Assembly (NCBI GenBank): GCA_002633005.1
Contig: NMRA01000375.1
Coordinates: 397,244 to 439,407 of the forward strand
Length of the DNA stretch: 42,164 nucleotides
Direction: 5' to 3'
Source of the DNA: Phoronis australis
Lineage: Eukaryota > Animalia > Phoronida
The notes beneath the pieces were generated by a model. That model saw only the letters and a list, made by a program, of their open reading frames with translations. It made no database searches and was not told the origin of the DNA. Numbering within the stretch: the stretch's first letter is position 1; each line of letters starts with the position of its first letter. The translations under genes and the position numbers were made by a program. This document shows, in pieces, positions 8,557-38,481 of the stretch.

Positions 8557-10626
8557 TCACTGCCGATTGTTTTCTCCAGGTTTTCCAGCTTTATTCTGTT
8601 CCCAATGTTCACGATCCATATTTGCTTTTTTCTCCGATTCAGCATTCGCTATTATTGTCCTGATTGAGTAGTCAAGATTTACAGTGAAAGGCAAGAACTT
8701 TTTCACGTCACTCATTTTAAATTTCAATTTTTGTTTAGATTCATCTTTTTTGTCAGCTGCCTGCAGGAGTAATTCGAACGATTTTGCGTCATGATCAAGA
8801 CTAAGTAACGCTTTCCAGTCGGACGGCTTGGCCAATTCTTTCTCACATTCTTTGTATATCGGCAGTAGCTCTTTCTCCAAATCTTCTTGAATTGGCTCTT
8901 TTCTTTCACGGTTTTCGTATACACGTATCAGCCAACTCGATCTATATGGCCACTGCTCTGTCAAAATCACCCATCGCACGAGCTTGTGAATTTCATCTTC
9001 ATCCATTTTCTCCCCACTCATCACAAGCTTAAACGTTGCCATCATTATGTTACGGATGCGTTTGATATTTCGCGCGTTAGGTGCAAGAAAGTCACTTGCG
9101 TCTTTCAAACCCTCCATTGCTATTATCAACGACTTTTTCTCATCTTCCCTTTTCTCAGTACTATTTGGTTTCCCATCATGACCTGGATTTCGCTTGTTCC
9201 GACTAACAGGTGGAGAGTCCCTACGTTTAACAGTACCATGCTTATGGACGCCATTATCGGGCATTTCTGTTTTCACCATGGCGTCAATATACTTTATAAC
9301 GTGCTTTTTCTTGGGCAACGGTATGCAAAAAGGCAGGTGAATGATTTTTTTAAGATACTCGTGACCGTTAATATTAGCATTTAACAGCACTTCGGGGAAT
9401 GATTGCTCGATAGCTTTCACGACAATTTGTGGATCAATGGCAACTAACGAAATGAAGGGCAGCGTGTTATCGGACAACAATATATTAACTGCTTCCAGAA
9501 TCTTGTGAATTTTGTGTTTTTCTACTCTGTCTAGATCGTCAATGATTATAAGTAAGCGATAATGTGTTTGGTATAAGAACTCCATATATCTAATAAAATC
9601 CTTGAGGAAGTATACTTCTAACTTGACTCTGTTCATAAATCCTAATTCCTTGTCAAAATTTGAACGAGCCAAATGCCTTTTCATCCGCAGTACACGTTCC
9701 GCCTCAGATTGACATAGGGAACTAATCAAACCCGCGGTTGTTTTAATTATCGGTATTAGCGCTGTAACAAAACCCACAAGCGCTACGCCAAATAGGAGTT
9801 GCTCGCGCGTGGCTGGGGGCGTTGTTTGGGCAAATTTAAACATTACCATTACTGAAAAAATAAATATGAAGATTATCAAGAAAATGGTAAAGGAATAGGG
9901 TATCCCTAGACAGCATTGCCGCTCTTCCAGCACAAGATTTGGTTGTGATCCGGGTGTCTTGTTTTCTTCCTGGGTTACCGGGTTATACCCCCCACAGCAT
10001 GACCTGAAGCAAGACTTGTCTGCGACTCCTCTGTTTTCAGGCTCAGTGCCCTCGGTGGCTTCGCCTTCAACAAAGCCGTCAATGTCCTCGGTGGCTTCGC
10101 CTTCAACGAAACGGAACAATCTAGTTTTCCAGAAACCGAATTCTTGTTCTACAACATTACAGATGTTTGTAACAATGCCAGCCCATAGAAGGTCAGAACC
10201 AGCGAACTCCCAAGCATTGAAACGAGCTTCAATCACTTTTAAGTTGCTTGGGATTGATTTGATGTCCGTGGTGCGTCGTTGATGATATGGTCGTTTGAAA
10301 AACACGAGTAACAGGACTTTTTGAAATTCATAAAACATTTTGCATCCACCGTCACAACAACACTTAACCAAGGCGACCAGAACAATTCCGGCGGAAATCG
10401 AAATGACACATATTTCACATGAAAGTTTTTGTGAGATTGTCGCGCTTGCATTTCCTGTTGTGTTGCTTTTGTCACAATATCCAAAAAGCGAACCTCCGGC
10501 AGCTGCGACTGCACCGGGCAGTAACACGAACAGAAGCAATATAAAATAGGCACATACTGGTACGTCACACGAGAAAAACCTGCACAATTTTGTCTTCATT
10601 TGGCAACAGCTTGAGGCTTGCGATTC
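8557..10626 (-). CDS. Large terminal exon of an NKPD1/Kidins220-like KAP-family P-loop NTPase
   Basis: The 680-aa ORF extends upstream to a phase-0 acceptor, ttctatcaacAG|GAA (10627/10626). It has the KAP motifs FNAWEFAGSDLLWAGIV, LGFMNRVKLEV, Walker B LLIIIDDLDR, NGHEYLKKIIHLPF, PNARNIKRIRN and WVILTEQWPYR. Two pairs of hydrophobic TM-like segments are inserted in the NTPase. Confidence 0.93.
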   Translation of the reverse strand, partial: ESQASSCCQMKTKLCRFFSCDVPVCAYFILLLFVLLPGAVAAAGGSLFGYCDKSNTTGNASATISQKLSCEICVISISAGIVLVALVKCCCDGGCKMFYEFQKVLLLVFFKRPYHQRRTTDIKSIPSNLKVIEARFNAWEFAGSDLLWAGIVTNICNVVEQEFGFWKTRLFRFVEGEATEDIDGFVEGEATEGTEPENRGVADKSCFRSCCGGYNPVTQEENKTPGSQPNLVLEERQCCLGIPYSFTIFLIIFIFIFSVMVMFKFAQTTPPATREQLLFGVALVGFVTALIPIIKTTAGLISSLCQSEAERVLRMKRHLARSNFDKELGFMNRVKLEVYFLKDFIRYMEFLYQTHYRLLIIIDDLDRVEKHKIHKILEAVNILLSDNTLPFISLVAIDPQIVVKAIEQSFPEVLLNANINGHEYLKKIIHLPFCIPLPKKKHVIKYIDAMVKTEMPDNGVHKHGTVKRRDSPPVSRNKRNPGHDGKPNSTEKREDEKKSLIIAMEGLKDASDFLAPNARNIKRIRNIMMATFKLVMSGEKMDEDEIHKLVRWVILTEQWPYRSSWLIRVYENRERKEPIQEDLEKELLPIYKECEKELAKPSDWKALLSLDHDAKSFELLLQAADKKDESKQKLKFKMSDVKKFLPFTVNLDYSIRTIIANAESEKKANMDREHWEQNKAGKPGENNRQ
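10049..10111 (-). repeat. In-frame 36-nt-period duplication within the KAP exon
   Basis: cctcggtggcttcgccttcaac occurs twice, 36 nt apart, giving FVEGEATEDIDG-FVEGEATEG. Confidence 0.9.
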
Positions 10627-11779
10627 CTGTTGATAGAAAGTAATTAGGACGTGAATAATCTGAGTCAGAGTGGCCTGCGTTTAGGTCGTAAAAGATGCTG
10701 TTTATACATGAACTTGTAGGATTGTTTTTAAACGATTCCTTGTTTCATGCAAAATCGACACCCTTCAAAAACTTCGGTCACATGATGACGAGCACCTTAT
10801 TACATGAATTGAGATGTTTCGTTTATCTATGGGTTGAGAATGGCAATTAAGTGAATTGATGGTGGGGACTTCACGTAGGCAATTAGTTTAAACTGACAAT
10901 AACTAGTTGTTCATTGTTGGGAATCATTATAAATTTGACACTTGCTTATGCAATTAATAAGAGTTAGTAACTGTTACTATTATCTAACAATTAGAGGAGT
11001 GTTAGGCGGAAGCACGTGGAATGTAATCATTGGAAGATCTGCGAGTCATTAAGTACAGGTACATCAGCGTATCTCAAACTCTATCGCGAATACACTCATT
11101 CGGTACAGTACTCGGCATTTTCCATACGGCGTTATAACGTGTATATTACATATAGTAATGTACATAATAACGAAAAACGGAAATGGAGGAACTGTGAATC
11201 GAATGAACATGATCGTGAATGAAGAAATATGTGGCATTTCCTAATCAAGATGGTAGCGCAAGCAAGTTCTTTCTATACGAGTCTCGGGATATAAACCATG
11301 TACAAGTTGTAATCACTGTCAGTTGGACAATTTTGATATTTCAAGAACGAATTGTGGATAAATTTATTTGCAATAAAGACTAATTCATCCAACGGTAACA
11401 CAGAAAAGCAGGAACAACTTTTCAGTGGAGAGATGCAAGATCGATTTGTAACATGAGAGTACAAAACCCTAAGAGGAAGTCCACGCCTAGCATCATGTTG
11501 TCTTTCACAACAGAAAACTGTAAAGTCGAGATGTACTGAAGATGAAAGAAATCAAGGCGGCTACGTCCACTGGGGTTGGTATTCGAATTCGCCATATTCA
11601 CCTATAAGGTCGTTTAGAGACATTCACGATTTCTAGAGTATTACCGGTTCAATTCAATATGTAGGCAAAAGAAATACCCTCTGACACAGCTCTAGCTCTA
11701 CCTATCGTGAAAAATGACCCGGTGGAAACATGATGAACGACACACGGAATTCCGTGTGTGGGAATCAGTAGGCATGTCT

Positions 11780-11940
11780 TGGTCGTAAGTAAACCGACCA
11801 CATCTGCACCACTTACACACGCCTTTATGCACCGTACTTGTTTTTTCTTAAACCACTGGATCGGGGTTCCCTTGATTTTGTTTACTTTGGTCACTGCCTG
11901 TTTTAATAAACTGTAACTACCCAAGTCAAAGGTGGTGGCC
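11780..11940 (-). pseudogene. RecQ-like helicase N-terminal fragment, probably transposon-derived (AcademH-like)
   Basis: FKKKQVRCIKACVSGADVVGLLTT resembles the Q-motif leading to motif I (LKxxQxxxIxxxxxGxDVxxxLPTG). The similarity stops before GKS. Confidence 0.45.
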
Positions 11941-12250
11941 ATACTTGGTAAACTAAAAGGGGTTTCCCAACTTTCAACCAATGAGAATGACTAAATGCTA
12001 TGATGTTGTGTTCATTACCTTATAATAAGAAGCCATGTTAAACAAATACAACATTCAACAGTGCTACGAAAAGTAGCGAAGTGAAAGATTGTAGCCATAG
12101 AAATTGACAAGGCACCGGTAATAAATTACCACCTCTGTCATCGCGGGTGGCATATGGAAAAAAACTGCAATGAGGCACCTACAGGCGTAATGGTTATTTG
12201 TGGAACTAAAACAATTGGCGACCTTACGCAGCTCGCCAGATACGACTTGC

Positions 12251-12460
12251 CTTCTTGTTTTTCTTGCACTTTTCACTTAAGAGGTTCAGTAGGAATGTCT
12301 TTCCTGCGCCCCAACTTCCGTAGACCCCTATCGTAGTGCCATTTGAAATACGCTCGTCCCGTACCAAATCCTCGAATGCCTTTGCGTAGACGTCATACCC
12401 AAGTTCGTCAGTATTGTTTGAAGGTCCTTCGCTGACTAAATCCCACTTTGAATCTACACC
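12251..12460 (-). CDS. KAP NTPase Walker A exon (not in ORF track)
   Basis: Manual translation: GVDSKWDLVSEGPSNNTDELGYDVYAKAFEDLVRDERISNGTTIGVYGSWGAGKTFLLNLLSEKCKKNKK. The exon is 210 nt, with acceptor ttgtattcAG|GGT (phase 0) and donor AAG|GCAAGT (phase 0). Confidence 0.9.
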
Positions 12461-14739
12461 CTGAATACAAAGTTGTTGTCATCAAACATTTATTCAAAGC
12501 ACCGTCAGCAGAGGTACATGTACAAGGAAATCTACGACAAAACAAAAGTCGAGACTGTCGTATTTTCCACTTTAACTTGCACGCAGTTCGTGAAGGTGAT
12601 TCTTAAGTCCAATATTATACAACTATAGAATTTTACCATGGTCAGAATTTTAGTTTTCAGACCTCAAAAATGTGAAGATGACCGTGGCGGAGCCCAAGGA
12701 CATTATAAGATTTTGGCATCTGGAAACCCACATATTGACCGATTGTGAAAGCCAATAATTTTTTATTATATAACATCAGCCATGTAATTCACGGAAGTAG
12801 GGTATGGGTCGTATGTTGATAACTCGTTCGTTTATTCAGCCACCATTTTCTACACTTAACGTTGTGGGAGAATTTGAAAAAAATGCTTGTCAGCCCGCTC
12901 AGCGTGCACGTGCTAAAGTGAAAGTCAGCGAACCATAGACAGGTACTTTTAGATGTCTATGCAGTGAACATTATTTTAGTCTTTGAAAAATACAGAACTC
13001 TTGGATTGGAAGGCCAACTTCGAAGTTCCAATACCCCACGTATGCGTGCAGGGAGCTGTTATCACTGAAAAGTTCTTCCGAACACTTTTCATCCATATTT
13101 CTGAAATATTTTGCCATCTAATCGCTCATGATTCTATTATGAACAAAAATTCCAAACTTTTCCCATTCCAGCTCTGCACCATGTTTTACTTTGAGAAAGT
13201 CTATGGGAGATCAATCTGTACATGTACGTTTTACAGAATTTTGAATGAAATATGTTTTGTTTAATTGTATTGTATTTTACTGTATTCCAGTCTGCTACAG
13301 GTATGCAAGGGAATATATGTTGAATGTGAAAAAAGTCGTTTCTACAAACTCCGACACTTGAAAAATGACCAACTCTTATAATGCGCAATTTATTTGCAGT
13401 TTAAAATGAATAGACGCATGTAAATTAAGCATATTAAAATTAACTATGAACACAAAATCATATCTGTCAAAATCTATAATTCCAGTTCCATGATATCCAG
13501 CGAACCCCAACAGAATAAAGATTTTGGAAAAAGGCCTTCCTTCAGCTGGACATTTATAGACTAAAATAGCTCTCATTTTATCCTGAAACAACGAAGAAAG
13601 ATTGAAAACCCTATCAAAATAAAAATCATTTCGATGTCTTGCCAAATAAGAAATAAAAAGGGGCCACAATTTTGCGTTTAAAGCGACGTGAATCTCCCGG
13701 TATTCGCATAAAATACGCGAACACTAACGGAATACGTCACAGCCAACAATGGCATGTACATGTATGGCGTGGAAATTATATATGCGAGCGTGATAATTAA
13801 CGTTCACGTGGCTTTGCGAAACTTCTCTGATATTGGCAAGGTATTCATTAGACATGTACATTGTAAGTTTCATTCAGTAGCTCAGAAGGGAAAGGCGGCT
13901 GTAAACACGACTTCCATCACAAAAATTGCTAAGAAAACTGACCGTTATGAAATTGTTCTCGAATTAGAGGGGATTTCAGGGCTTCGGAAGGTTTTATAGT
14001 TCGTTTTTGGTTGAGACTGGGCATTCCAATTTGGCTTGTCGGAGCATGTAATTTTAGGAGTCGAATCTCATGGAATAATGTTAATGAATTGCCAATTGTT
14101 TACCGAAAATTCCCCCCTCATTCGAGTAAGGAACAAGTCTGAGACCTCTTTTACAAGCTCAAGTGGACTAAAGCAAAAGTTCCCGGTTTTTGGACGGGGA
14201 GTGAGTACAAGCCTCTATTTGTCACGTTTGGTGGTTATGGTTGAACTGCAATTTACCCAGATTGTCCGAAAGATAACAAGAGCAACGCGAAGCGTTGATA
14301 TGCGCCCATGATTGCTTCCAGGAGTGTTTATTTCAAGCATAAAAATGGCCATTAGAGGTACAGAATGCATTGCACCCATCCAAAAATGGGAAGATGTCGT
14401 CGTCTTTTAAAATCAAGTGTCAAAACTGATATTTTGAGGGTCAAGCATTAAGATGGAGTAATTTTCTTCATAACCTATTACATCTAATTTGTATTATACG
14501 GTTACTTACAATCAATACTACACTAAACGTGTTCATAAGCCAATATAAACACTAAATGTGCAACTTTCAGTGTTTATATAACCAGCTCTTTAATGAGCCA
14601 AATTTGAACAAATGTTTTAAATATCCCAGGAAAAAAACTTGGGGAAATAGTTTCAGAAATATGGACAATCATTAGGTGTTGATGTCACTGATTACATGTT
14701 CTAACACTCCATGTCACTTTCCACTTTCCTCTTCTGTGT

Positions 14740-15400
14740 CTACTTCACAAATATTGGTAAACAAGAAATCAATCAGTAAGTTTGGTAAGATAGGACCACA
14801 CGATCACACAGCTTGTAACACTCTTTCCTCAGTCTGCAGCCACCCTTGTCATTCGTCTTGAGTGCTTAGTTATGGGTTCGCAAGCACGCTGGTACAAGGT
14901 CATATGGCGATTTACTCACTGGATGTGAGGTTTCAGTGCAGACTCGGGCATAGGGGAAGTCGAGCAAGGTCAATCTTAGACTTGTGAGGATTTTGTCTTC
15001 ATCAACCATTTTGCGTAGCATCTTGGCACGAGTAGCATCTATCGAATGACCCACAACTCTGACCGTACATGAGGCAGTTGAACTCTTCCAACTTACATTC
15101 CAATCAACGTCAGGTTGCCTGAATGCACGGTGAAATTCTGGATTCTTGTCTAACTTTTTAAGGGGGCCAACCTTTAGTTTACGTTTAAAGGCACTGGTGA
15201 AATCTTCTCCAGTGTATATATAAAATCCAAGTACAGCTTTACAGTAGTCTTTTCCCAAGGGTTTTGCCATGTAGGAGAGATTAAGTAGCCGTCGATGTTT
15301 TCAGACCCTGTATCTAGATATACAGTCAACTTTATAGCGTGCCTGCAGCAGAATGACAAAGACACCAGTGTCAGGGATTCTGACGACGTTGTTTCTGTAC
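14740..15400 (-). pseudogene. AcademX-like transposase relic (XPG/PIN-H3TH region)
   Basis: VVRIPDTGVFVILL (DTDV-like), VYLDTG, LGKDYCKAVLGFYIYTGEDFTSAFKRK (like HAxTGCDxTSxFxGKGK) and DATRAKML, with frameshifts. Confidence 0.65.
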
Positions 15401-16529
15401 CCAAGTGAGGCAGTGTACTGGTAATACAAAACAATTCTTACTGTAGATATGTGGGATCTCCTGAGTATGAACATCAAATCACTTTTACTATTACATTATG
15501 ACATCGCAAATTAGGTAAGTTTTGTTCATAAAAAAGATTGTGGATGCCCTTCTACGATCAGGATGACCATCTCGGTTTTCTCCAAACTGGAAACTGCCTT
15601 CTCACCACTCCAGACTTGAAGTAACAGTTGACAGAGTTGCTTTTTGTTGTGATCGTATGCAAGAAAGATTTTAAAATCATACGGCTTTTGTGTAGCTGAT
15701 CCACCAATAATTATTTTCTCTGAACTACAAAATTACCTCTTGTTGAAGGGAAATTAGCTAAGACGTGGAGAAGTGCAAAACTATCTTGGATGAACAGAAC
15801 AGCCTCAGGATAATGATAGTCTACTGGCGAAATGTTGTTCAGAAGATAATGCGAAATGGAGGCTTTGTTATTATATTCCAAATTTTATGAAAATCTGTTG
15901 AGGACATTTGAAGATACAGAGGTAAACGTAAAAAGTAAAATTGCCACTGGGGGGCACATCGGTAGTCCGATCCGTCCTAAAGTCGTTCAGTGGACTCAGA
16001 GGACCACCCTGTTTCAGGAAATGGTTCTGTTTGAAAGTGAAAGTTGGCAGTTTTGTGTACCTCAGAGCGATTGACTCTTGTTACATGATCAAAGCAATAA
16101 GCGACTCACTTACGGAATATCGGTCACTGTTTTAAATCTAAGTGACACCCAACCCATGCTGTCTGTCAAACACAAGTTTATTAAGGTCACTTACCGTTGT
16201 AACATTGGTTATATCCTGTTCTTTATTCACTTCAAAAGTAACCTCTTGTCTTGCGCAGCTCTGGCAGTCATTTCGTCAGCCATGGGAATCATGAAGCAAC
16301 CCACGGGGTTCTTTCGAAAATAAGTGTGATAAAAACCTCTCATGTGGGCGATTTCGGGACTGTTTTTTATGTCTCGGAAATGAGGTTAGGTCGAAATTAA
16401 GTTCTAAATTTCTTTTTTTATTTTTGAAGTTGATCACTTTTTACTATTCTGAATTTCTTGTTTAATGTTTGAAGTTGATCACTTGTTACTATAACGTTAA
16501 TCACAGCACAATATGTCAGATAATTTTAC

Positions 16530-16576
16530 CATTTTTTTCCGTCGATCACCTCCAGTGTCCTGCTCGATGTCTTCTC
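16530..16576 (-). CDS. Probable 47-nt exon of the KAP gene
   Basis: Acceptor cgtttctAG|GA, open frame (R)EDIEQDTGGDRRKKM, donor ATG|GTAAAA. Its phases (1 in, 0 out) exactly bridge the 17654 donor and the 12460 acceptor. Confidence 0.6.
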
Positions 16577-17653
16577 CTAGAAACGTAACACGCAGAACAA
16601 GGAGTAAGGTTCAACGTTATGTATGTACATCAGAAAAATGCCCATAGGTCAGTACCAGAAACCACATGTAAAATAGAAATGAAAGTACCAGATATAATAC
16701 TTCATACAGTGTTCTCTGAAACACAATTAAAATCGTTTGTAAAATTTGTCACTTTCATAGGCATGAGAAATTGTCAAGAATTTCATTTTTAGGATATCTA
16801 GGAAAAATGCGAACAAAAGTTGCACAAAACAAAAACGAAAGGATAATTTAAAAAAACATTAAACGATTTTGAGAGATTTTACCTTAAGCATTTATATCAA
16901 AACAAATTTGATCACGTAATTGATGTATTTACCATTATTTTTGCACGAATGTACCTTTCTTGCAAAACAAAATTCTACTAGAGTCATAGTCACGTGACCC
17001 AGTCAGTGGAAGTTTGCACTAATCACCTTTAAAAGACTTTCCACTTTCGGAAAACATGTACTTTTATCCATTTATTTTGTAGAAAAACCACAGACTTGTT
17101 GATAAGGTCAAACTAACTTTTAGAATTACATACTTATCCCATTATATTTTTCACGTGATTAAATGATTCACACGGAATATCAATTATAGCTAATAACAGT
17201 GCTAATGCTATACACTGTACAAAAGTCTCCATGATTAAGGGTAGACGGTCTTCTTTCCTTATCCCCAGATTCCCAGGACGGATGATCTCACTGATCAACA
17301 ACGTTCTCTTTTCTAGGGCTTTATGTTCGAATTTCACACATCTTTTCCATCATGAATCACAGGTGCTCGTACCCAGCATTGGTAAAAAAGAGTGTTGATG
17401 CGTTGCACCAAATACATCATTGCTTAATCACACCTTAGATATTTGTTTCAAACGGTGGTTGTAAGTAAAAGGATTTAGATCTTCTTAGTTTTCCTTGCCT
17501 TAGTTAAAAAGCTACCATTCTTGAGATTTAAACTGTAAACGACCAGAAAACATTAAATTAAAAAACTTATTCCTTGTCATTGTGCACAGTTCAATTAATG
17601 AACATCCGACAATAGCGTCATTTTGCTAAGAAGAGAGTAAAACGTAAACTCAC

Positions 17654-17945
17654 TGGGGCAGTCGGGTTCAGACAGACCTGTACCGTCACCGACTGGAGGG
17701 CCACTGGACTGGTAGAGTTGAGGTTTGTTAAGAGGTGTGTCGTTGGTGACGTCGCTGGCACTTTGGACTTGCGAATGGATTGCAGGGTCGCTTTGCACAT
17801 GTCCTAAAAATATCAAACTGTTCGATTGACTCACCCGCATCGGAACCGGACTCATGGGTGTCTGGGTGCTCACTTGACTGGTCGCCATGACGGTTGCCCA
17901 GCTGATCGTCGTATGTGTCTTTGGTGGAGTCGTTGGAATGTTACC
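17654..17945 (-). CDS. Probable Ser/Thr/Pro-rich linker exon of the KAP gene
   Basis: Open frame GNIPTTPPKTHTTISWATVMATSQ...SEPDCP with a strong donor CCCA|GTGAGT (phase 1). The acceptor is either cattcgtAG|GGT (17945) or a phase-1 site at 17980 that would include an in-frame TAG. Confidence 0.6.
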
Positions 17946-19115
17946 CTACGAATGACTTGTAAGTCTGCTTTTCACATTTTCTTAAGACACATGGAAATTG
18001 AAAATAATTAAGGCCTGACCAAGCTCGTTCGATACGAAGTTCGTCCATTTACATGTGACGTTCTCGTGTATATAATTATGTATACTTTTTGAAGTACATT
18101 ATAACGTCATAGGCGAAATAATGAATAGTGAATTGGATGAGCGCGGTCTCCCTACATTTGTAGTATAACTGCGTTATCTTAAAAATCAGAAATTATCTAC
18201 ATTACCGAGTCCCCTAATGTAAAAGGCTACATATCTTAAAAACAGAAAGAATGGGAGATAGATCCGACACGGTTCCATCGTCTGAGTCTCTCCGCGAGTC
18301 CCACTCAGTTATAATCAAGTTAAGGCAAAATCGTAAACTTCAAACTCTAATACACAGTAAGTCAAACTAGAGGCGGTGAATCTTTCTGTCGAATCAGCCA
18401 ATGAACACCACTGAGTCTATAGTGTCATGGTGGGTAACTCGCCGTATCAAGATAGTTCTACATCAAATTAAGGCTCACAACAATTGTTTTCAAATATGGC
18501 TCATGATCGTGAAACAAGATATAAATTCGAAAACAGAAAATGAGCTACATTTTTCTTCATCTAAATATTGGGTGACGCTCATTGAATAGGTTAATGTTAA
18601 TTCCAGTATACGACTGATCAAGTGGATGTATTTTAAGAAAATAATAATTTACGTCTAGGCAGCAGTACTACTCAAGGCTGGATTCACGAATTGCCAGCAT
18701 ATGCTTTTCTGTTTGACAGTTTTTGGGTCCATAGTTTGCAAAATAATCCAAAAAATCTATATGACATTTGTTCAGAAGANGAATTGTCAGCATAAGCTTT
18801 TCTGTTTGACAGTTTTTGGGTCCATAGTTTGCAAAATAATCCAAAAAATCTATATGGCATTTGTTCAGAAGAAGCTTTCGATGATAGCAGTTTTAAACTC
18901 TGTTTGTATTAAACAAACTTTCCACCCTAACCCTATGTTTCACAGCAAGAAACAGCACTGGAACAAACGCCCGCAAAAAACTCATACACATGGGTGACGC
19001 AACCTTAGCTGCGAGTGATCGAAGTTGACATTCAAGTCCTAGAGTTCTGTCTTTGCGTACTAGTCTAATTCATACATGTACGTGAGGTTGCATGTGTTTT
19101 TGCCAGCAGACCCAC

Positions 19116-19220
19116 CTGGTGGACGTGCCTTTTTCGGTTCTAACTGTACGTCTTCCTCTTCAGAAATTTGTTGCCCGGAAACGCTTTCTTGTTCTGGCTT
19201 AGAAAGACCAATCTTTGAAC
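19116..19220 (-). CDS. Possible 105-nt symmetric (phase 1-1) charged exon
   Basis: Acceptor ttctgccacacAG|GT, frame (G)SKIGLSKPEQESVSGQQISEEEDVQLEPKKARPP, donor CCAG|GTGGGT. Confidence 0.5.
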
Positions 19221-21084
19221 CTGTGTGGCAGAACGATGGGAATATTAATGTGCTGGTAAACAAGGTAATTGAATTTCTTCGAACGTTTTAGCTTTTAATA
19301 CAAAGAAACTTGGTTTGTTGATTGAGACATTGCTGGTCTAACTAGGTGTTCCCTCAAAACTTATGAAAACCGATCTTGGAGGTGCTGTCTATACCTGTAT
19401 CTTCCAAATAAAGAACCGTGTGGGAGCTGGAACTTTACATACTTTTGAACCTAAATAGAGTTCAGAAGATCAGTGTCTCGCGCCTCGAAAATCTAGCCAA
19501 AATCACATGTTCTCATTTTATGTACACGGCAAATTCTCCCGTAATCTCGCGAAGTCTTGATTATTAGCGAGGTCCCAGCGTAGGTAGTAGCGTTACTGAA
19601 CCCTCTTGCTCCATTGAATCGCTTGATGCTACAAGAAGATGGATTGAAAGAAAGGACTGTGTATCAGTGTTGCTCATGAAAAGCCGATGGTAGAAGTGAG
19701 CCGCGAGTACCAAGTTTCTTCCTGTTTCCGGCAAATCTTTTAATTTCCCGTGTGATAGTAATGGGACTGTTACCTAACGCTAAGCCCATTTGAAACTTTG
19801 TTTGAATGATAAAATCGCATTCTAACGACGCTCATGTCTCTATCACTTTTGGGAAAAAGCCCCGCCAGGCGATGAGACGAATTTGGTGGCTTTCTTTTAG
19901 CTCGAATGCCCAAGTCACATGCTCACAATTGTACGACACATTTCTTTAGTCGATTTCCATCAGCTGGCTTGTGATCCATCCCAGGGACGTAGCCAGGGGG
20001 TTCAGGGGACTTGATCAAACTCCCTCCCCACGGACAAGATCCAGCCCCAGCATTCCCGTTACGCATAGGATATAGATGAGCAACAATATCAACAAATTTG
20101 TTGTAGTTGTTACTGGCACTACTAAATACAATAATAACAAGTTGCTAATAACTTCAAAATAGGTTCAGAATTCAAGCGCTTTACATAATCACCTGGGCGA
20201 TACCCACCCAACACCGCCAAATGGCTATATATTTGCGTACCAGATGACAGGTTCGTGGACACGACGATTAGGGGACGCTTTATGTTGCTGACAGTCATAA
20301 GCCACAGACTACCACGTTGAGTGTGCGTGGTGACTGTACGGCAAGAGCGTAAGACGGGCCTTAGAACTACATGTACCTATATAGCTGCGAGAGGTCCCAA
20401 AAAGTAGGGTGTAAATGCCTTAAAACCGATCAACATACAAAACGGCATTTTTCGGTATACTTGCCAGCATATAGTGATGTGAAGGCTTTTTTAATTTTCA
20501 AATTGAAAGTTATCACCAATATGTTATTCATACAGTGCACGTTTTGGTTGTAGATTGGTGGATTGAAATTCCTTTAAATCTAGTACTCGATCGTAACTTC
20601 AATACAATGTGCACTGAGAAAATCCTGCCGACGAGCATGTTCACATCATTCGGTAAAAGTAAAAAGAGAGATATTAAAAATATTTGCTCAACGAAGAAAG
20701 TTCTTCTCTGTAAGTTTTTATCAATGGTGCACAACCTCGAAGACTTCATACGAACAACAAACTTGATAGAAGAGATTTCCACGACTACGATTTTCAAAAT
20801 TCAAAACCTTAACCAGGTGTACGTTCATGAACAATTCAAACCGGTCGAGCAAGACTCTTTACATAATCAAGCAAATACTGCGAATTTAAAAACCCACCCA
20901 GTGCACGTTGCAGCCGTGGTCTATTTGTTCTCACGCAAATGATTGTTTTTAATGAAATTGCCTCACGCTGCTAATGCTATCTTTTACTAGATAATGAAAC
21001 TATCATAAACACATTTTGGGCAACAATAGTATTTTTACGGTGGTCCAAAGATGACACCACAATTTTCTTTTCTATCTACCTCAG

Positions 21085-21190
21085 GATCTCGAGATTCCGA
21101 CTTAATCATCGCGAGTTCTCGAGACCATGGCTTAGTTATCTCGGGAACTTGGTATCCGGAATTAATTATTTCAGGATCTCGAGATACCCA
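21085..21190. repeat. Short ~30-33 bp repeats with palindromic TCTCGAGA cores
   Basis: atctcgagat, ttctcgagac, atctcgggaa and atctcgagat recur at roughly regular spacing. Confidence 0.5.
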
Positions 21191-21360
21191 GACGATTTTC
21201 GTCTGTGTTTCGCTGTACGTTAGCAGGACTTGATGATGATGCCAAAAAAGTGTAGACCTAAAGGTCAACATTTTCACACGGGTTGAAAACACTACACCTT
21301 ACATGTATTTGCGCAATGTCTTGAACATTTGATTACCTTCTACGAGATACTCAGGGAAAT

Positions 21361-21595
21361 AGGGATGACTTGATTGAAGATTATCCTAACCTTGGATTAA
21401 AGCACTTGGAAATTCTAAAATTACTGCAAAAATCATGAACAAAAGTTTAAGACAATGAAGGCGCATCTTAAAAAGCCGAGTCATAAGTAGGGGAAGTTAT
21501 AAATACAATATTGGTGCTGTTCGTGACGCTGTCCAACGAGAACTGAAAGCAAGAGCAACAAATCTTGGTTATCATGCCATGTGCAGGGTCCATGG
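21361..21595 (+). pseudogene. IS3EU/Clr5-like transposase N-terminal relic
   Basis: RDDLIEDYPNLGLKHLEILKLL...SLRQ*RRILK...VRDAVQRELKARATNLGYHAM. This fits the remembered YFxLGxxxxEI...SLRxLKRxL...GYRxM pattern. Confidence 0.5.
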
Positions 21596-21600
21596 GATTA

Positions 21601-21952
21601 ATATGTAGTTAGTTGGTTGACATTCAATATCCAATAGCTGCTCCATCTGGTGGTCAGACGGTCACTGGCAAATACAGCTAAGATTTAGTTGGATGACATC
21701 CAACATTCAATAACTGCAACACCTAGTGGTAAAATGATCGCTGACATACACAGCTAACATGTAGTTAGTTGGTTGACATCCAACATACAATAGCTGCCCC
21801 ACCTGGTGGTCAAATCATGAAGTTATACAAGGGATAGATAGTTCGGTTGGTTGACATTGAACGTCTAATAGCTGCCCAACTGGTGGTCAAATCATGAAGC
21901 TATACAAAGGGCAGATAGTTGGTTAGTTGGTTGACATCCAACATCCAATAGC
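21601..21952. repeat. Minisatellite, about 5 units of ~70-83 bp
   Basis: Repeated agttagttggttgacat(c/t)caacatccaatagctgc...ctggtggtcaaa. Confidence 0.85.
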
Positions 21953-24818
21953 AAATTTTAATTTAATGACTAAGAAAACAATATATTTTTAAGGAAAAGA
22001 AGTTCATTGGAAAAGTAAAACATGTTCAAAAAGAAAATCTTATAAATCAGTTTTGTTTTTAAAGTGGAAAATATTGAAAATAACAGGTGTTCGTAAAATA
22101 TCAGATATAAAATAATTGAAAAAACTGAATGTGAAACTGGTTTAAAACCAAAATAAAAGCACAATCAAATACAAAATATTTTGCTTTTTGTCTCCATTTT
22201 CAGATGATTTGAAAATGAAAAGCAGACCTTTGCTGCTACAGCTCATGAGTTCATGTGGAGAACTTCTTGCTTATACTGGTCACTTCTCAGATTCCCTTAG
22301 CCCCAGACAACTTTTATGATGCCTTGCAGCTCGACCTTTGTATTGATGTAGATCTGAGCTAATGAAGTTGAAAGGTAATAGGTAGCAATGCTGTCTCAAC
22401 AATGGTGCTTGTTATTTTACCTAAGTTGGTTGTGGAGTTGCAGCTGAGACTGTTTATGGATTGCAACTGTGGATAGTAGTTTTAACTTGTTGAATTAAAT
22501 ATCTCAAAACTACTAAAAAGTTAATTTGTTTTTAACTTGACTATGGGCCATTTCCCAAAGAAACGATGGTTTTAAATATGGTTCAAACCAGATTTTGTAA
22601 TTTCATTTTTAATGCTCCTGTCTTTTTCTCTTATCGGGAAAGAGTTGGTCGATATCTTTTAATTTATTCTTAAACTTCAAGCACCAAAACAGTGGTATAT
22701 TTTGATTGCCGGCGAAACTTAATTAGTCCAGTTAATTGTGAACCCATCAATAAATTTTCCAGATCACAGCTACACTAAACATTTCACTACAGGTGTCATT
22801 AGTTTAAGTTTAGTTTTTATTAAAACTCAAGCCATAAAGTATACACTAAAGTGCAAATACTGTATGATGATAGCCAAATTGAAGATTTGGAATATATGGA
22901 CAAGTTAGGTTGCACTGACTATATAACTATTCTACTCTTTTGTCAAGTCATGAAACTGAGAGGGCACAATTTAAATATACATTAACTGTGTCCGAGTTAA
23001 AACTCTGGTTTAACAAGATTGAAAGAATATTAAAAGAATAATCCATGTGATATTCTTTTAATATTTTTTCAATCCGTGTGCTGTTGTCAACTTTGTTCAG
23101 TGTTTATAAATCAATAGAGTAGATCAATACCCACGGTCGCTTATCTTCAATCGTACCTTATGTTGGTAGTTTTTATCTTATTAGTTCATCGGTTTTTACA
23201 AATCGGAAACCTTAATTGGTTGTTTTTTCCAGCTGACTACCGCCGTGGTGTTTGTCTTTAACGAAAGTTATTTGTTAATGCATTTTGAAAATTCGTCAGT
23301 AAGCACAGGCAGATATTTTTGCTACAATTTAGGGTTCGGGTAATTACAATTAATTGGGTGTTTCTCCCATGCATGGAACAATGGGATCATCACAACTGTA
23401 GTGTTCATTCACTGTCAAATTTTACAGGACTATAGGTCTATTATCGTCCATATACAATCACTCATTGATCGTTTGTGCTGTCTAAAAGATACAATGTTTG
23501 TAAACAGAAACTTAATGAGCATGTAGTGATATGACCCCACACAATAGACTAGGTTGGGTAGGCCATTGAGCTGTAGATGGGCGAACAAAGGATTAATCTG
23601 GAGTGAACACTCATAATAGAATAAGTGATCACACTGATACCAAGGAAAATGTAGTAACAAAAGATTAAAGTGAATTCTTAACAACAAATACAGATCCCTT
23701 ATAATCCTGGATGGAGACTGTATGGAAATGAAATGCTTTGTTCTAAAGTTGGTGCATGAATTAGTGCANTGAACACTCATAATAGAATAAGTGATCACAC
23801 TGATACCAAGGAAAATGTAGTAACAAAAGATTAAAGTGAATTCTTTACAACAAATATAGATCCCTTATAATCCTGGATGGAGACTGTATGGAAATGAAAT
23901 GCTTTATTCTAAAGTTGGTGCATGAATTAGTGCACAGAGAATGGCTTCAAAAACATGTCAAGATAAACAGAATATTTGATTAGTGAAGTTTGAGGCCCCA
24001 CTTGTGGTCAGAGTTGAATTTTACATACATTTAGTTTTGATAACTGTGAACTTGAAGCCTTTATTAATGCGCATGACATGGCTTAGGAAAAAATGTCAAG
24101 AGCCGAAGACAATTTGATTGTTGAATTTTCTAACTGAATGTCACTCATGGTAGGTGCAGTACCTGTTGACTTGTACACCTACATGCCCTGTATTTATGTG
24201 TACACAACAATTAAGCATTCTGCTATTCACAGGCTTGAGTTTTGCATTTTCTGCTTGATTTGATCAGCACTGTTTATAGGGACTCTCAGCTGTCTGAACT
24301 CGGATCCCACGTCATCTACTAAATAACGGGCATCTTAATGCATTTTGTTGCTGAGAGAAAGTTTGTATACTATCACCCCATCTACTAAATAACGGGCATA
24401 CTCTGTGTATATGGCTATATTTGATACAACGGACAGGAGTATTTGGGGCCCCTCAACGAAGTTAGGGGCATATTGCGTGTAAGTGACTACTTTGATGCAA
24501 CTGACACCAGTAGTTGGTTCGCATCCAACCGACATTTTCTTCCGTGCTATCCTAGAGGAGGCGCCACTTTCCTAAATTATTTGGTGTAGTTTCCTGTTAT
24601 TGTATTGCGACGGGAAATTCTCGCATCTAATTTACTGTCCAGTACATCGAAAGCAAAATAATACTTACGGTATTTAAAAGATGTTCAAAATTTTGAAATA
24701 GAGAACTGTTAGTATCGTGAGTACTTTTAGCAATGCTACTACCACCCGACCACATAACAACCGACATGGCGCAACTTTTGTAAAAGCACGCTTGCGTAAT
24801 GTAAAATAAACCCTGTTA

Positions 24819-25800
24819 CATAGGCGGATTTAGGGTGGGGGGCAGGCCCCCCTGGCTGCCGCAAAAAATAAAACAGCAAGAACGTAGGGAAATGTTGAGT
24901 TTATTAATTAACCCCGGTAATTAACATTATACGGCTGAAACAAGATTTAAATGTGTGCAGTTTTAGTGTATTTGAGGGGGGGGGGGGAGATTTCAGATTC
25001 AATTTCACGTGTCAAATTCGGTACACGGCGCAATCGTAACGGAACGATGGCCAAGTAAAGGTTCTCCCGCGATATCCCAGGCGACCGGCAGTGGCGCTAC
25101 GCACTACGACTCCGTTTCCGTCGTCTGCTTCTCTGTGCAATGAAGAAAATTACTTCATTTTTTAAAGAAAATGGAGTCTGAGTGACGATGAAAAAACAAA
25201 AGCTGCTAGTAAGATATGAATTTTAATGGAAGCCTTAGTGAATCACTCAGAAACTCATAATTCTCTCTTTTTCAAACCTTAACTTAAGACGTTTTCCAAA
25301 TTAATCGCGTCATTAATGCCAACACAAAAAAGGATTTGGTCTTTTGGGCAATTGAAGACTATTTTAAATACAACAAATTTGTTACGAATTGATTGCACAA
25401 AGTACAAAAAGTGTAATAATCATTACAAAAACAAGTAGGTTTTGCACGCAAACGCTGTGGACCATAAACAAGTAGGTCTTTTCGTATTAAATTACGTGTG
25501 AAATTGTGGTGGTGCAGCAGTAAAGATCGCGCTCTCTATTAGCCAGGTCGTGAGTTCGAGTCGGCTTATTGCAGTTTTTCAAGCTTGACACGTTCTCCGT
25601 GTTTTTTTCTTGGATAATACTTCAGGAATCAAGAAAAATGCTTGATCTTTAGAGGAAAAATATTCCCTGAGCAGGTGGGGGGCTAAACTCCCCTTCCGAC
25701 CTCCCCCCATTCGGTGCTATGCGCATCTACAATCGTGCTTTGCGCAAATGTTTACAGACTAAATGTAGGCCCCTCTTGTGATATCCTAGATCTGCCACTG
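24819..25800 (+). mobile_element. Complete non-autonomous DNA transposon with 5-bp TSD
   Basis: Imperfect TIRs CATAGGCGGATTTAGG / CCTAGATCTGCCACTG, flanked by TGTTA at 24814-24818 and 25801-25805. Confidence 0.8.
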
Positions 25801-28068
25801 TGTTACTTATTGTTAAAAATTTTATTTTAAACTTAAAAGTTGTAAATCGCATTTAGCTTCTATAACAAACGTTCAAGTTAGATTATAATAAAAACTCTTT
25901 GATGTTGAGACAACAACACTTAGCAAATGGGGAGTACGTACATGATGACAGTGGATGCTTAGGATATCATATTGAAGCATGCTGGATTGTTTGAGCGAGG
26001 TGGAGTTTAAAATGTTGATTGAGGATTGGGTAATTATTCACTGAGTGGCTGTTCTTATGTCCGTATAAGTTGTTGTTTGCATCTCCTTCCATCTGGGAGT
26101 ACATACACCCGATTTGTCAATCACAACCTTGTCAGCTCCACGGAATTTCGGCATTGTTTAGTTGTTGGTATAAGTGTTTGGTAGACGATAAAATGTAAGG
26201 CGTGTGGATTTCTACTGTGCACTACTTTGTGATTCGTCCGTGTAATATCAAAAAATTGCGTACTAGGTGTTTTTAACCAATCGTGTCGTAACGCATTCCA
26301 GGTCATGTGAGAAATGACGTTATTGCTTCACGTCATTCTTTGTATCAAACGGACAATAAACTATTTGAAAATATAACAAAACCGGATCATTGGGAAATGC
26401 ATGTCGCGTAGCTTTTCCGATTACTGATAAAAATTGCCATTTTTCCACAAGATGCCCAATATATCTGTATTACTAGTACAACTAGTACTACATGTGTTTT
26501 CAAGTTTTGACTGCATTATATGTACAGGTATAAAGTTTTCGATTTTTGTGTCTGTGGTTTTGCGTGTGACATACATTTGGATGTCAGTGTTTTGTCAATG
26601 TGAAATGTAAAATGCAATTCGTCTGCAATAGAAAGGGCATATTCTATCAACATAGTCTGTTTTCAAATGCCAACCTCTCTCAATTAATGAATCGTGGTTT
26701 CCACATCGAATAGTTTGGATAAATACACGTTGCAAACTAAATCAAATGCATACAGTAGTTAGGGATGTCGAGAGGGTGCGGAAAGGGAGGCCCACAACCC
26801 CAGGCCCGTGGCAATTAAGGCCATCTTCAGTGAAGGGAAAAAAACGGCACAACAAAAAACAAAAGTTCCAAAGGTTTGGGCTAGTCGGCCTCAGATAACT
26901 CAGAAACCTATGAAGGTCCCTCAAAATTTTACGGGTGTTGAAAGCAGGTAAAAGAAGAGACGATGTAGATTACGTGCCTGTTTGTGTTGTATAATATGGG
27001 CTGCCTGCATTATTGCTATGAAATGAACATGGAAAAACTGCTTTTGCAACATGGTTTGTATTATAATTGCCCTGCGATTACAGTTGTACATACATACTAG
27101 ACCAGTTACAAAATTACTCATGGGAACCAAAAAATGGCCAATTCACCAAAAACCAAGGAGTCATCAGAACTAATGTGCCAACCCTTTTCAGTCCTTCAAC
27201 AAAATATCATTTGTAGTGGACATAAACCCTCCTACAATCACATAAAACAACTTTTGATTTAGACAACTAAATAGGCATTATTTCCTGGTAAGTTTTGAGC
27301 AATTTAAGAATTTCAAAAGAACTGGCAATATGCAATCGGTTGAGACCTGGCTCTATAAGATGGCTTGTCAGATAGTGTGTAATTTTATACACCCAGCATG
27401 GTCTCGGGGAATAGCAAACTGTTAATTCGCTGCAATTCCAGAAATCATCTCCAATCTGGATAAGGAACAAATTGAGAAAAGTTTATAGAGGTAAATGGTC
27501 TCAATCAAATTTTTTTCTCCTGGACGGAATGTGGCTTTACAACCCAGGCAGAAAGATAAGTGAATAAAACCAGCCTAACTGTAACAGGGGCTCAAATGTC
27601 AGAAATAAATACTCATTAACAAACAAAAATCTATAATGGTAAATAAAATGCAGAAACATACATTTAGATCAAGTACACAATTTCAAGAAAAAGAAACAGT
27701 ACAATGGTCAGAAATCATCTAAATGTGTTGGCCACCCTGAGAATTCCTGGCAGACCAAAAAATCTAGTGGCTAAACAAAAGGAACAATGTACCATTACCA
27801 TGTAGCTGTACCTACTCAATCCACTGACCCAGGATCATGATCGGTGGCGGGACAAAAATTCAATTCAGGTAAATTTAGATATGTGCTGTTCACGCAGCAG
27901 TTCTTGTGCAAGCAAAGCTTGCAACAACATACAAGCCTACTTCCCTACACAGCTGTGCTGATATACCCCCACTGGTTTTAACAGATCAGCCAGAGTATTT
28001 ACAGGTCCATCGACTGTAGTGTTTCCTTCCTTTGAATTTTTACAATGCTACATCTTTGACAATCTTAA

Positions 28069-30035
28069 GGTAGGTGTATACATGTACACTGATCAAATCT
28101 CCAGGTTCTTAACTAAAATGAGTAAAAGGGAGTTTTAGCTAGTTAGACATGACTCTGAAAGTGACAAAAATCGAAAAAAAGTTTTGTTTGTAGTTCGTTT
28201 TATAAAAAAATCGAATTTTTTAATTTCCAAAAAATCCAATTTTACCTCGAATTTCTTTTTAAAATGCACAGGGATTATCATCAACTGTTTCCTTACGCAA
28301 TATTCTACTTATCCATACCAAATATATGTACAAAATCATTATGATCTTGATTTTGTGGCATTTTTTGTGTGTGAGATGGGGCAAGCACGCCACTTTTTGT
28401 CATTTGGTCACGTTCCGTCTAATAACTAAAAATCTGGTCCATTTATCAAAAAACCCTGGCACGCGATTTTACTTCAGTCCTAGAGGATTTCAAATTTGCA
28501 ACTTTCGTAAAAATTGAACCACGTGTTGTGGAAAAATAAGCCCGAGAATCTTGTCACTATCCTGAAATCACGAGCCGAGAAAAACGGCTTTGAAGTTAAG
28601 CGGTCATCGATTGCCACTTGAGATCAAATTTCGTTCAGAATGCGTGGTCATTATGTTCCAATTTTTGTTGAAGTACTAGAAATAAAGCTTATATTTACTT
28701 CATATTTAGAAAATGTGACACACCTGTTTGTTAACAGTGTAATTTTAATCATTTTTCGAACTTGTGAAGCACGACAGACGACCAAAACAAATATGGCTGT
28801 CACGTGGGCGGAGCTTAGCGTTGATCTATTGTCTGCTGTACTGGTGTGCCGATCACACATTAAAACCATGTGTTGATTGTTTATACGACTCATCTGAACT
28901 CTCCACTCAGTTTGTAAAAGACTCTCTAACTATATTACACAGACCTGTTTGTTAGTTTTCCAATATTATCATCAACCAATATATATGTTATATCAAATCG
29001 CCGCGTTACTGCCTACATAACAATATTGGCGACGAGGATAAAGAACTACTTTCATAGTAATGGTTCAACATTTTTACGTGCCTGTACCGAATGGACTTTG
29101 GGATAAGAAAATATCACTTTCTGCGCAAATAGCGCCGTTTGGGTGAGGTTCTCAAGTTACTTAAGTTTCTTATATTGCTTTCCTCTAGAATTGTATAATA
29201 TCATGAGTTTTAATTCAGGGTTACGTTTGAATCTATGCACTAGAAAATTTTTTGTTATGTTGAACATTGGGTCATTTCTCTAATTCTTTGGGTTACGGCC
29301 AGTGGCAAGTTAAAAATCCTCTGGGTTTGACAGCATAATTTCTCCACGGCGCGTTCCCAGCACAGAAGCACGGTTTATCTGCGAAGACTCTACTCTGACG
29401 GCAAGTAGTTGTCCATGTGTCGCGCGCGCGGCTTGTCTTCACAGCGGGTGCATGCACTCTCACCGAATCGTGCAACACCACCCACGTCGACACTCAGCGT
29501 CCTCTCGCAAGACACCTGACCTTATATTACCGACTTCTCTTATACATGCACAATTTCTGCACGGACTCCTCAAGAGTGAGTGCAGTGATGGCTTTGGTAG
29601 GGCTTGGCGTACTCAACTTAATGTTTTTGCAGATAGACAAACAGGCTCAGGCTCGGAACAGGAGCTAGTTCACCATTTCACTACCAACTTTCACATGATC
29701 AAGAATAGAATTGTTTTATTCTTGGTCTTGCTACAACACCAATATCAGCTGGTACATCACTCTCGATTGCCCGGTTACGCAATGCTTGTTGACAGGGTTA
29801 GATTAGAGCTAGTGTCCTTGTATATAAGCTCCGCCCCAGTTGTCAATCACTGAGCAGGTGAGCACTCAAGCCATATGACTTACTGAGGCTTGGTCAAATA
29901 TAGCTAAAAAACAACTTTGGATTTTCATAATGATTTTATTTTTCTTTAGTATACTGTGCATCAAGAATTAAAGATTAGGATGACATAAAAGTGTAAAAAA
30001 CAGTCAAAATTAATTTTTTTGTGTATCCACCTACC
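28069..30035. mobile_element. Non-autonomous TTAA-specific DNA transposon (Kolobok-like)
   Basis: TTAA|GGTAGGTGTATACA ... TGTATCCACCTACC|TTAA. The TIR matches at 13 of 14 bases, with TTAA at 28065-28068 and 30036-30039. Confidence 0.85.
28730..29039 (+). mobile_element. Gypsy-like LTR 3' end with tRNA-Ser primer-binding site
   Basis: ...cataaCA is followed by atatTGGCGACGAGGAT (29027-29039), complementary to the 3' end of tRNA-Ser(GCT) (ATCCTCGTCG-CCA). The left boundary is approximate. Confidence 0.55.
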
Positions 30036-30599
30036 TTAAGTAATCGTGAACCTGTTGCTGAACCACCCTTTGTGGGAATAGTTGATAAACGTTTCCGTGT
30101 TTCTCAAGTTGTGAGCCCTTTGCTGACGTCATGTACGTTATCTGTTCGCCTGCAGCTGGCGCAGCGATTAGTGTGAATCGTTGGATTAGTTGAATTGTGT
30201 GTTTCGTGTCTTTCAAGTTGTGAGCCTTTTGCCAACGTCATGTGCGCTATCTGCTTGCTAACAGGGAAGGAGGTATAAAGGAAGACGGGGGGGGGGGGGN
30301 NNNNNNACGAGTCCGAAGATCTTAGATTCTAGTGACACTGTGTCTACTACACATGATATACGTGACGATTTTAATCAATAATAAATTGATAGTTTCTGTT
30401 TGTTCTAACAGGACTCGATCAAAAAAAGGAATATTCGTATAACCACTACATTGCAATTTAAATGTCTCGTCCTCATTCGTCTCATCCTCCTGCTTTCTGT
30501 TGTCTATTGGCACTGGTGGTGGTTCTTCACAAGCGGTATAATAATAGAATAACATAAGCCACATTTCATGGTGACTGTGGACGAACAATGCATTGGTCG

Positions 30600-30643
30600 T
30601 CATTGACATTGCTCGGAGAACATGTCATCTGTGCAAGGCATAC
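30600..30643 (-). CDS. Possible short terminal exon after the RHIM exon
   Basis: Acceptor cattgttccacAG|GT is phase 1 and compatible with the 30923 donor. It reads (G)MPCTDDMFSEQCQ*. Confidence 0.35.
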
Positions 30644-30922
30644 CTGTGGAACAATGGCGCTCGTCTGCCTAAAAATCTTACAATAGTTTAATAAAAATCA
30701 GTTTGGACAAAAGCGACTACTGACTTGCTATATAAAACCGAAGGACTAAGCGGCCGCCAGTGTCACATGAACTGTTTAATAAAACTGTTCTTACAATTGT
30801 ATACGATGACAGAATTGGACTTTTAAAGAATGTGTACATGTAATGTCTTGAAAGTTTGAGAGGAGACAAAAGTAACATTAATTTACGAGTACTATGTTTA
30901 AATAATGAGACTGTGTCATTAC

Positions 30923-31195
30923 CTTCTTTGATTGTGCTTTCGGAGCTCCCATCTGATGACACACCCTGTTCCTGACCAGATGGTCCCTTTGGGATTGAAC
31001 GTCCCTTTTGTTCATGCTCGGCCCTAACGTATTCTATGTCTTCTTCGCATTGATTAACATTCATTGTGTTATAGTTTCCAATCTGGACGTTCCCTGTTTT
31101 ACCCGAAAAAGTGACCCTTGGAGAAGTCGCATACTCAGGAGTGTTTGAAGTACCACTAAAAGATTGTCCGCTACAGTCTTCGTTCTGTATTTCAT
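30923..31195 (-). CDS. RHIM-containing exon (273 nt, phase 1-1)
   Basis: Acceptor attatattccAG|AT and donor GAAG|GTAATG. Translation: EIQNEDCSGQSFSGTSNTPEYATSPRVTFSGKTGNVQIGNYNTMNVNQCEEDIEYVRAEHEQKGRS...STIKE. The VQIG core is at 31077-31088. Confidence 0.8.
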
Positions 31196-31486
31196 CTGGA
31201 ATATAATCATATGCTTACATAGACCAGCACTTATACTTATTTTTCTGCTCAAAGAATGAAAATCTAACCTGGCCTTTTATTCTCGCAAAATTGGTCTCAC
31301 AATACCGCTTAGCGTGAGAGATACGTATACTTTTCATTTCTTAAATTTTATTTTACGGGTACAGGTAAATATTGTAGCTAACATTCACTGCTCAGAAATC
31401 GAATTAACAGTTGGGCAACAAGTAAATATTGCACAAATGAATTATCATAGAAACAATTAAAAACAGTCATAGTTGATGCAATTACA

Positions 31487-38329: not shown

Positions 38330-38481
38330 ACAGATCTTGCCGATCGGAAAAGTTTGTCGCCAGTCCTTGTCGTGGATACGCATCTATTCCACGCACGGCA
38401 CACGGCGTGCTCGGTTGGGAAGTTGTGCAAATGTATCCTATTGTCGCTGACATTGCTACACCCGCACACCACGCAAAGAGG
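38330..38481 (-). pseudogene. THAP zinc-finger domain relic
   Basis: MPLCVVCGCSNVSDNRIHLHNFPTEHAVCRAWNRCV contains CxxxxC, FP and W. The CxxHF part is degraded. Confidence 0.75.

Follow-up and report, generated by a model that had tools for sequence, protein, structure and literature searches.

A stretch of 42,164 nucleotides from Phoronis australis (assembly GCA_002633005.1, contig NMRA01000375.1, positions 397,244 to 439,407 of the forward strand), called here the window and numbered from its first letter, carries on its minus strand an intact NTPase of the KAP family and, upstream of it, an exon with a RHIM-like motif. The KAP NTPase of this locus is real and intact, and its fusion to the RHIM exon is likely, through splicing that is predicted; on balance, the locus probably holds one RHIM-KAP reading frame. 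It could well be, though we would stop short of calling it probable, that the four-helix membrane NTPase forms the C-terminal part of a RHIM-tailed protein acting as an NLR-like, amyloid-seeding membrane switch. RHIMs are of the kind of short amyloid-type motifs that drive cell-death signalling, and we know of no mechanism for animal KAP NTPases besides Kidins220.

The NTPase is encoded by two exons.

12251..12460, minus strand: Walker A exon of the KAP NTPase (GSWGAGKT), phase 0-0, with a GC donor.
8557..10626, minus strand: terminal KAP exon, with two predicted membrane-helix pairs, the Walker B motif IIIDDLDR, a helical C-terminal lobe and the stop codon.

Joined (12460-12251 plus 10626-8557), they give 759 codons with zero internal stops, and both match PF07693 (cut-off 20 bits): profile positions 1-47 in the Walker A exon (43.4 bits, E 3.5e-11) and positions 125-258 in the large exon (87.9 bits, E 9.2e-25). 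The original prediction, made from the letters of the sequence, had called this NTPase complete, and it is. The intron 3' of the Walker A exon begins with a non-canonical GC donor (12250-12249, minus strand) in an otherwise strong context. Both Walker motifs are intact and aligned with the corresponding columns of the relatives, and the FNAW, YLKK and QWP motifs are conserved. Four hydropathy peaks, at residues 24, 72, 245 and 276 of the large exon, predict two pairs of membrane helices between Walker A and Walker B. The Walker A exon also matches the PifA profile (E 1.5e-10), the PifA and QatA profile matches being weak. For the large exon, AlphaFold gave a model with a mean predicted local distance difference test score (pLDDT) of 74.6; a Foldseek search with the KAP model gave zero matches at E 0.001, and a profile search of PDB sequences gave none below E 0.3. 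Among the open reading frames (ORFs) of the window, the profile scan returned KAP/YobI only, with no LRR, WD or TPR. The protein is a KAP family member, and neither an NLR nor Kidins220.

Two further features of the large exon can be mentioned. A short in-frame tandem duplication at about 10035-10110 (minus strand) gives FVEGEATE twice in the KAP loop between the helix pairs. In addition, the exon encodes 21 cysteines; several of them form CC pairs close to the membrane helices and are possibly lipidated.

The second part of the putative gene is the following exon.

30923..31195, minus strand: RHIM-like exon, internal, phase 1-1, 90 codons, polar and of low complexity, with the motif at about 31115-31056.

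As had been proposed, this exon lies on the same strand as the KAP NTPase, is flanked by AG and GT and is open over its 273 nt in phase 1-1; it reads VTFSGKTGNVQIGNYNTMNV. Its splice sites fall at the 93rd and 98th percentiles of an approximate matrix. Polar residues make up 77% of the exon, a composition that suggests disordered flanks. The tetrad VQIG (31088-31077), followed by NYNTMNV, fits the (V/I)Q(V/I/L/C)G consensus found in an excerpt of PMC9444067, and the NYNTM after the core fits the Asn-x-apolar extension as described in an excerpt of PMC4262963. The core pattern was found in 13 of 300 simulated windows and the extended pattern in 5 of 300, and the real window has one other match, on the plus strand. 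Because the core pattern recurs in this way, the motif needs outside support; by itself, it is modestly above chance. Pfam scans of the window ORFs detected no kinase, Z-alpha, TIR or death domain. No protein homolog of the exon was found among PDB sequences (0 at E 10), in the Atlas search (best value 0.76, an unnamed protein) or among 28 candidate proteins of 159-2000 aa (none at E 10), and metagenome scans retrieved the RHIM exon in 0 of 164 stretches and the RHIM exon with KAP in 0 of 40. These blank searches are no sign of novelty.

The region between the two parts contains several exons, exon-like segments and a repeat.

30644..30664, minus strand: possible micro-exon of 21 nt, phase 1-1, optional and frame-keeping, with a donor at the 99th percentile.
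30449..30512, minus strand: exon-like remnant, acidic, whose donor is weak; it may be a decayed exon, and its coding score refers to 30506-30449.
19116..19220, minus strand: linker exon, phase 1-1, 105 nt, open; coding null fraction 0.003.
17952..18274, no strand assigned: dispersed repeat, 68-78% match to 40713-41195, containing the 17980 acceptor; outside the gene.
17835..17945, minus strand: exon-like segment, 111 nt, phase 1-1, with a stop at the second codon; likely a dead or alternative exon.
17654..17803, minus strand: linker exon, phase 1-1, 150 nt, open; coding null fraction 0.03-0.07, the weakest of four.
16530..16576, minus strand: linker exon, phase 1-0, 47 nt, open; highest coding score in phase 1 (null fraction 0.005).

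The low-complexity exons 19116-19220 and 16530-16576 had already been proposed and are indeed open, in phases 1-1 and 1-0 respectively, the former having the best splice-site pair from 12.2 kb to the window end. The exon that had been drawn between them, 17654-17945/17980, had to be redefined: the 17980 acceptor lies inside the dispersed repeat, and the acceptor at 17803 scores better (94th percentile) than that at 17945 (78th). The donor at 17654 reaches the 98th percentile and the acceptor of exon 16576 the 97th. With the 17803 acceptor, the in-frame TAG at 17946-17948 is no longer unavoidable, as the six-exon path is stop-free and encodes 950 aa, with the tetrad at residue 36 and Walker A at residue 239; paths skipping exon 17803-17654 are likewise open. 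The segments 17945-17835, with its stop, and 17803-17654, which is open, lie 31 nt apart; they may be mutually exclusive exons or the fragments of a single older exon. Position 40741 was considered as an exon of a duplicate gene and rejected, being a copy of the dispersed repeat.

Along the six-exon path, about 200 polar residues separate the RHIM motif from Walker A, with no membrane segment predicted there. Pfam scans of 96 further ORFs gave two weak unrelated matches and no recognisable domain between the RHIM exon and KAP. The N-terminal RHIM first suggested does not sit at the extreme N-terminus: the exon is internal, and no start exon, death-fold exon or other upstream exon was found in the window. 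The N-terminus of the protein would lie upstream of the window, or has been lost.

Coding potential was scored with a 3-periodic model trained on the KAP frame alone. For all four upstream exons (the RHIM exon and three linkers), phase 1 gives the highest score, the null fractions being 0.003-0.07 (0.007-0.01 for the RHIM exon); these exons were chosen partly by phase, and the periodic scoring is hence not fully independent. The micro-exon 30644-30664 has no coding signal in this model and no reads.

Transcripts from related loci provide support for the RHIM exon. The RNA data consisted of three raw runs, X1-X3, of which 18-19% each was read, and of the contig set X4; reads were mapped to 11500-31400 at 90% and to 30380-31400 at 80%. 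Sense-strand paralog reads (3 in X1, 7 in X2), about 85% alike, cover 31045-30921 and depart at the predicted donor 30923; their downstream letters are the same in X1 and X2, and two letters at the donor fit either side. An X4 contig that spans 31045-30936 differs at 17 positions and has no gap; over 110 nt, the paralog transcripts are about 85% identical. One X3 read fits about 31056-31087, as judged from depth bins. Since the paralog reads depart at the exact predicted donor, the RHIM-like exon belongs to a transcribed and spliced paralog family. Read by hand, the paralog letters upstream of 31045 are in frame and keep M-N-hydrophobic at the motif end, the tetrad lying beyond the paralog letters available, and an in-frame length change follows directly after the motif end. 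The remnant 30449-30512 is matched over about 34 nt by five sense reads that originate from another locus.

In the paralog, the RHIM exon is followed by one that is open in phase 1 and whose start shares 4 of 11 residues and 19 of 29 aligned bases with the sequence at 19220. Among 2301 minus-strand AG sites, 19220 ranks first at the protein level and tied fourth at the DNA level; as a pre-named site it has a p of 0.0014-0.0028, seven other named sites having p of at least 0.16. The fusion is better supported than the original prediction held, because the stop can be avoided, the linkers score as coding in the needed phase and the paralog uses the same donor to reach an exon resembling 19220.

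The best relatives of the KAP part, with an identity of about 30%, come from a brachiopod, amphioxus, tunicates and hemichordates; the closest relative of the large exon is from Lingula (32% identity over 85% of the exon). In a FastTree tree (midpoint root, 97 rows, 545 columns), built with 96 hand-chosen homologs of 219, the KAP protein and Lingula fall into one group together with unnamed proteins (support 0.94), and the Kidins220-like and vertebrate NKPD1 clades lie elsewhere, the deep nodes of the tree being weak; the two NKPD1 rows shown are without Walker A/B. Module swapping is seen in this family, with C2-ankyrin, PAW-like-ankyrin, OTU and long polar tails, N- or C-terminal. For example, two separate (Ank)-KAP-NACHT-LRR models of Branchiostoma lanceolatum, XP_066275097.1 and CAH1256141.1, have a four-helix KAP fused directly to NACHT-LRR. 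This amphioxus arrangement places two NTPases in one membrane-anchored NLR, and is either real or the result of merged gene predictions. Furthermore, TIR_2 is fused to KAP in 10 of 12 hand-picked unnamed, bacterial-looking proteins near the animal group; others in this TIR-KAP clade have N-termini that look lysozyme-, peptidase- or SH3-like by eye. For the Lingula relative, an N-terminal TIR domain (residues about 40-150) was considered from an alternating strand-helix pattern seen by eye and was rejected: a profile of 9 TIR-KAP proteins did not score above shuffles, the Atlas gave no match and the single-sequence model had a pLDDT of 41. Searches of open-access full texts gave no paper that pairs RHIM with KAP, and the sequence searches gave no protein with this pairing.

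It should be emphasized that a number of observations, given in this and the next two paragraphs, weigh against a functional RHIM-KAP switch at this locus. The RHIM-to-KAP junction proposed earlier, like any other exon-exon junction of the locus, is absent among the 15 joints listed for 11500-31400 at 90%, and the exon bins have depths of 0-1.3. The locus is nearly silent in the three partly read runs. Coverage possibly from this very locus amounts to one unspliced, opposite-strand pair in X2, which, like a 99%-identical record, is likely to be DNA. The paralog is known only up to the exon after the RHIM, and the reads do not indicate its continuation into KAP; in a blind window-wide scan, shuffles reached the score of 19220 in 62 of 200 cases (protein) and 49 of 60 (DNA), which is not significant. 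Changes in the RHIM exon of the paralog look neutral, as the 15 differences listed hit 13 codons, 4 of them with synonymous and 9 with non-synonymous changes, and no stop. The stop-bearing phase 1-1 segment 17945-17835 and the remnant 30512-30449 suggest exon turnover or decay. Joined to the fact that the sense reads derive from paralogs and not from the locus copy, this would fit an explanation in which the 5' exons are what is left of a duplicated, decaying RHIM gene, or in which this copy as a whole is a young and silent paralog; the active gene would then lie elsewhere in the genome. The region upstream of the RHIM exon, made of 11 kb of repeats with no exon of known domain, points the same way; Pfam scans of its 64 minus-strand ORFs of at least 42 aa gave two weak matches, a THAP fragment and an unrelated one, and no death-fold exon. 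However, all 759 codons of KAP read without interruption, and the four upstream exons that were chosen have good splice sites and no stop. In addition, the reads come from 18-19% of the three runs, and the expression of immune genes is frequently induced or confined to certain tissues. We consider decay or silencing of this copy unlikely.

The fusion itself is contested by the relatives and by the gene layout. Among 219 KAP homologs, none has a RHIM, 3 having the core pattern and none of these in a RHIM setting; in overlapping sets, PF12721 was found neither in the precomputed domains of 85 homologs nor in Pfam scans of 79. Moreover, the intron after the RHIM exon spans 11.7 kb versus 1.1-4.1 kb for the others. 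Two neighbouring genes could also explain these data: a RHIM adaptor whose exon 17803 is read through to a stop at 17597-17595, followed by a separate KAP gene that starts at ATG 16532, in the manner of tunicate KAP proteins. Exon 16576-16530 ends in this ATG (16532-16530), from which KAP could start independently. The context of the ATG is strong, with A at -3 and G at +4, and as Met 191 of the long path it would put Walker A at residue 49, versus 50-59 in tunicate relatives. An AATAAA is present at 17076, yet with 20 copies of this signal in the interval from 8 to 31.3 kb it carries little weight. The same exon 16576-16530 has a 97th-percentile acceptor and scores as coding in the frame leading on to KAP, and this coding signal upstream of its ATG argues that coding runs on 5' of ATG 16532. 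In addition, exon 17803 has a 98th-percentile donor at 17654, and two genes would leave only about 500 nt for the KAP promoter. Two genes are a fairly unlikely, though credible, arrangement.

Even within one frame, the motif may have a more modest role. The membership of the exon in the RHIM family (PF12721) is partial, judging from its sequence: the tetrad and the N-x-M are present, whereas the profile gives 10.4 and 12.8 bits against a cut-off of 20, over profile positions 12-21 of 22, and the 165-aa ORF that holds the motif has no PF12721 match. The top structural match of the KAP model is RdrA of the RADAR system (Z 7.2, root mean square deviation 7.7, 275 aligned), a weak match inside the range that the tool rates as common, and no oligomer is known for the clade of the KAP protein. 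Symmetric phase 1-1 exons are prone to shuffling. The motif could be a degenerate passenger or a docking site gained by phase-1 exon shuffling, on a Kidins220/NKPD1-like scaffold that does not nucleate amyloid. However, the tetrad and the downstream N-x-M fit the published consensus, and the paralog keeps the motif end while neighbouring residues change; such a passenger is distinctly unlikely.

The favoured reading remains one RHIM-KAP protein. In this protein, all six exons of the locus would be spliced together and the motif would lie in the cytosol with the ATPase, held by a polar tether about 200 residues long, because the path from the motif to Walker A has no predicted membrane segment. 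By analogy with RdrA, a heptamer, or Tmn, a decamer, the ATPase would form a ring, and nucleotide-driven ring formation would gather several RHIMs and seed the fibrils of partner RHIMs. Such fibrils would drive inflammatory or death signalling, and an immune or cell-death function can be proposed for the locus on this basis. That the RHIM-KAP protein works as an NLR-like amyloid nucleator is possible rather than probable. We propose just as tentatively that it represents an animal amyloid-signalling immune receptor built on a membrane KAP ATPase instead of NACHT/NB-ARC. On sensing a cue, its ring would seed RHIM fibrils, and the receptor would belong to an expressed, diversifying paralog family. 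If true, a RHIM on KAP would connect the animal branch with signalling in innate immunity or cell death, and would provide amyloid signalosomes with a third NTPase class and a membrane location.

The window as a whole is repeat-rich, with about 39% GC and spliced genes. A THAP-domain fragment at 38257-38529 (minus strand; E 0.00026, below cut-off) is probably a DNA transposon remnant, and the broken ORFs at 5500-7500 resemble a decayed DNA transposon (three ORFs scanned, no Pfam match). The end of an ORF at 40398-40560 (minus strand; no Pfam match) resembles what we take to be a LINE endonuclease or reverse transcriptase fragment. Other elements are a MITE-like imperfect palindrome of about 400 nt (84%) at 3122-3523, and two copies, at 45-604 and 25028-25560, of another abundant, transcribed repeat.

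Several known systems share parts of this architecture. RIPK1, RIPK3, ZBP1 and TRIF have in common with the locus the tetrad followed by Asn-x-apolar and disordered flanks, whereas the locus motif is below the Pfam cut-off and is accompanied in the window by no kinase, Z-alpha, TIR or death domain. With Kidins220/ARMS, NKPD1 and PifA (PF07693), the locus protein shares Walker A/B, four predicted membrane helices between them and the FNAW/YLKK/QWP motifs. Unlike Kidins220/ARMS, it has no ankyrin repeats or SAM detected by Pfam in the window ORFs, and it falls outside the long ankyrin-bearing clade; unlike NKPD1, it keeps Walker A/B. None of 219 relatives shows its predicted RHIM tail. The B. 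lanceolatum KAP-NACHT-LRR models belong to the same broad animal KAP group and have an immune-receptor architecture, but in these gene predictions KAP is N-terminal to the NLR and without RHIM.

Bacterial defence NTPases offer another comparison. According to excerpts of the respective papers, Tmn is a membrane decamer (PMC13001434), RdrA is a heptamer (PMC9994260) and KAP-fusion proteins protect bacteria against phage (PMC13552941). The likeness of the locus to Tmn, RdrA, PifA and QatA consists of the weak PifA and QatA profile matches and of RdrA as top fold match. In contrast to these systems, the gene is animal and contains introns, and the effector logic proposed here is amyloid seeding, not ion or nucleotide loss; Tmn, for its part, belongs to the YobI family and has two helices.

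A precedent for the logic comes from the amyloid-motif NLRs. As presented in excerpts of PMC4262963, the fungal NWD2 and the amphioxus RHIM-NACHT BF82280 carry an amyloid motif on an oligomerising NTPase, and assembly of the NWD2 receptor is, in an excerpt of PMC7889193, the accepted route to HET-S activation via this motif. The combination of an amyloid motif with an oligomerising NTPase is thus already known from the amphioxus RHIM-NACHT, and the predicted membrane KAP scaffold would be what is new. No effector gene with a matching motif was found in the window. Like NWD2/HET-S, PNT1/HELLP and BF82280, as described in the same excerpts (PMC4262963, PMC7889193), the locus would have a short motif N-terminal to an oligomerising P-loop NTPase. 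It differs from them in that this NTPase is a KAP, not NACHT/NB-ARC, is predicted to be membrane-anchored and has no C-terminal repeat sensor, and in that the motif is internal, about 200 residues from Walker A.

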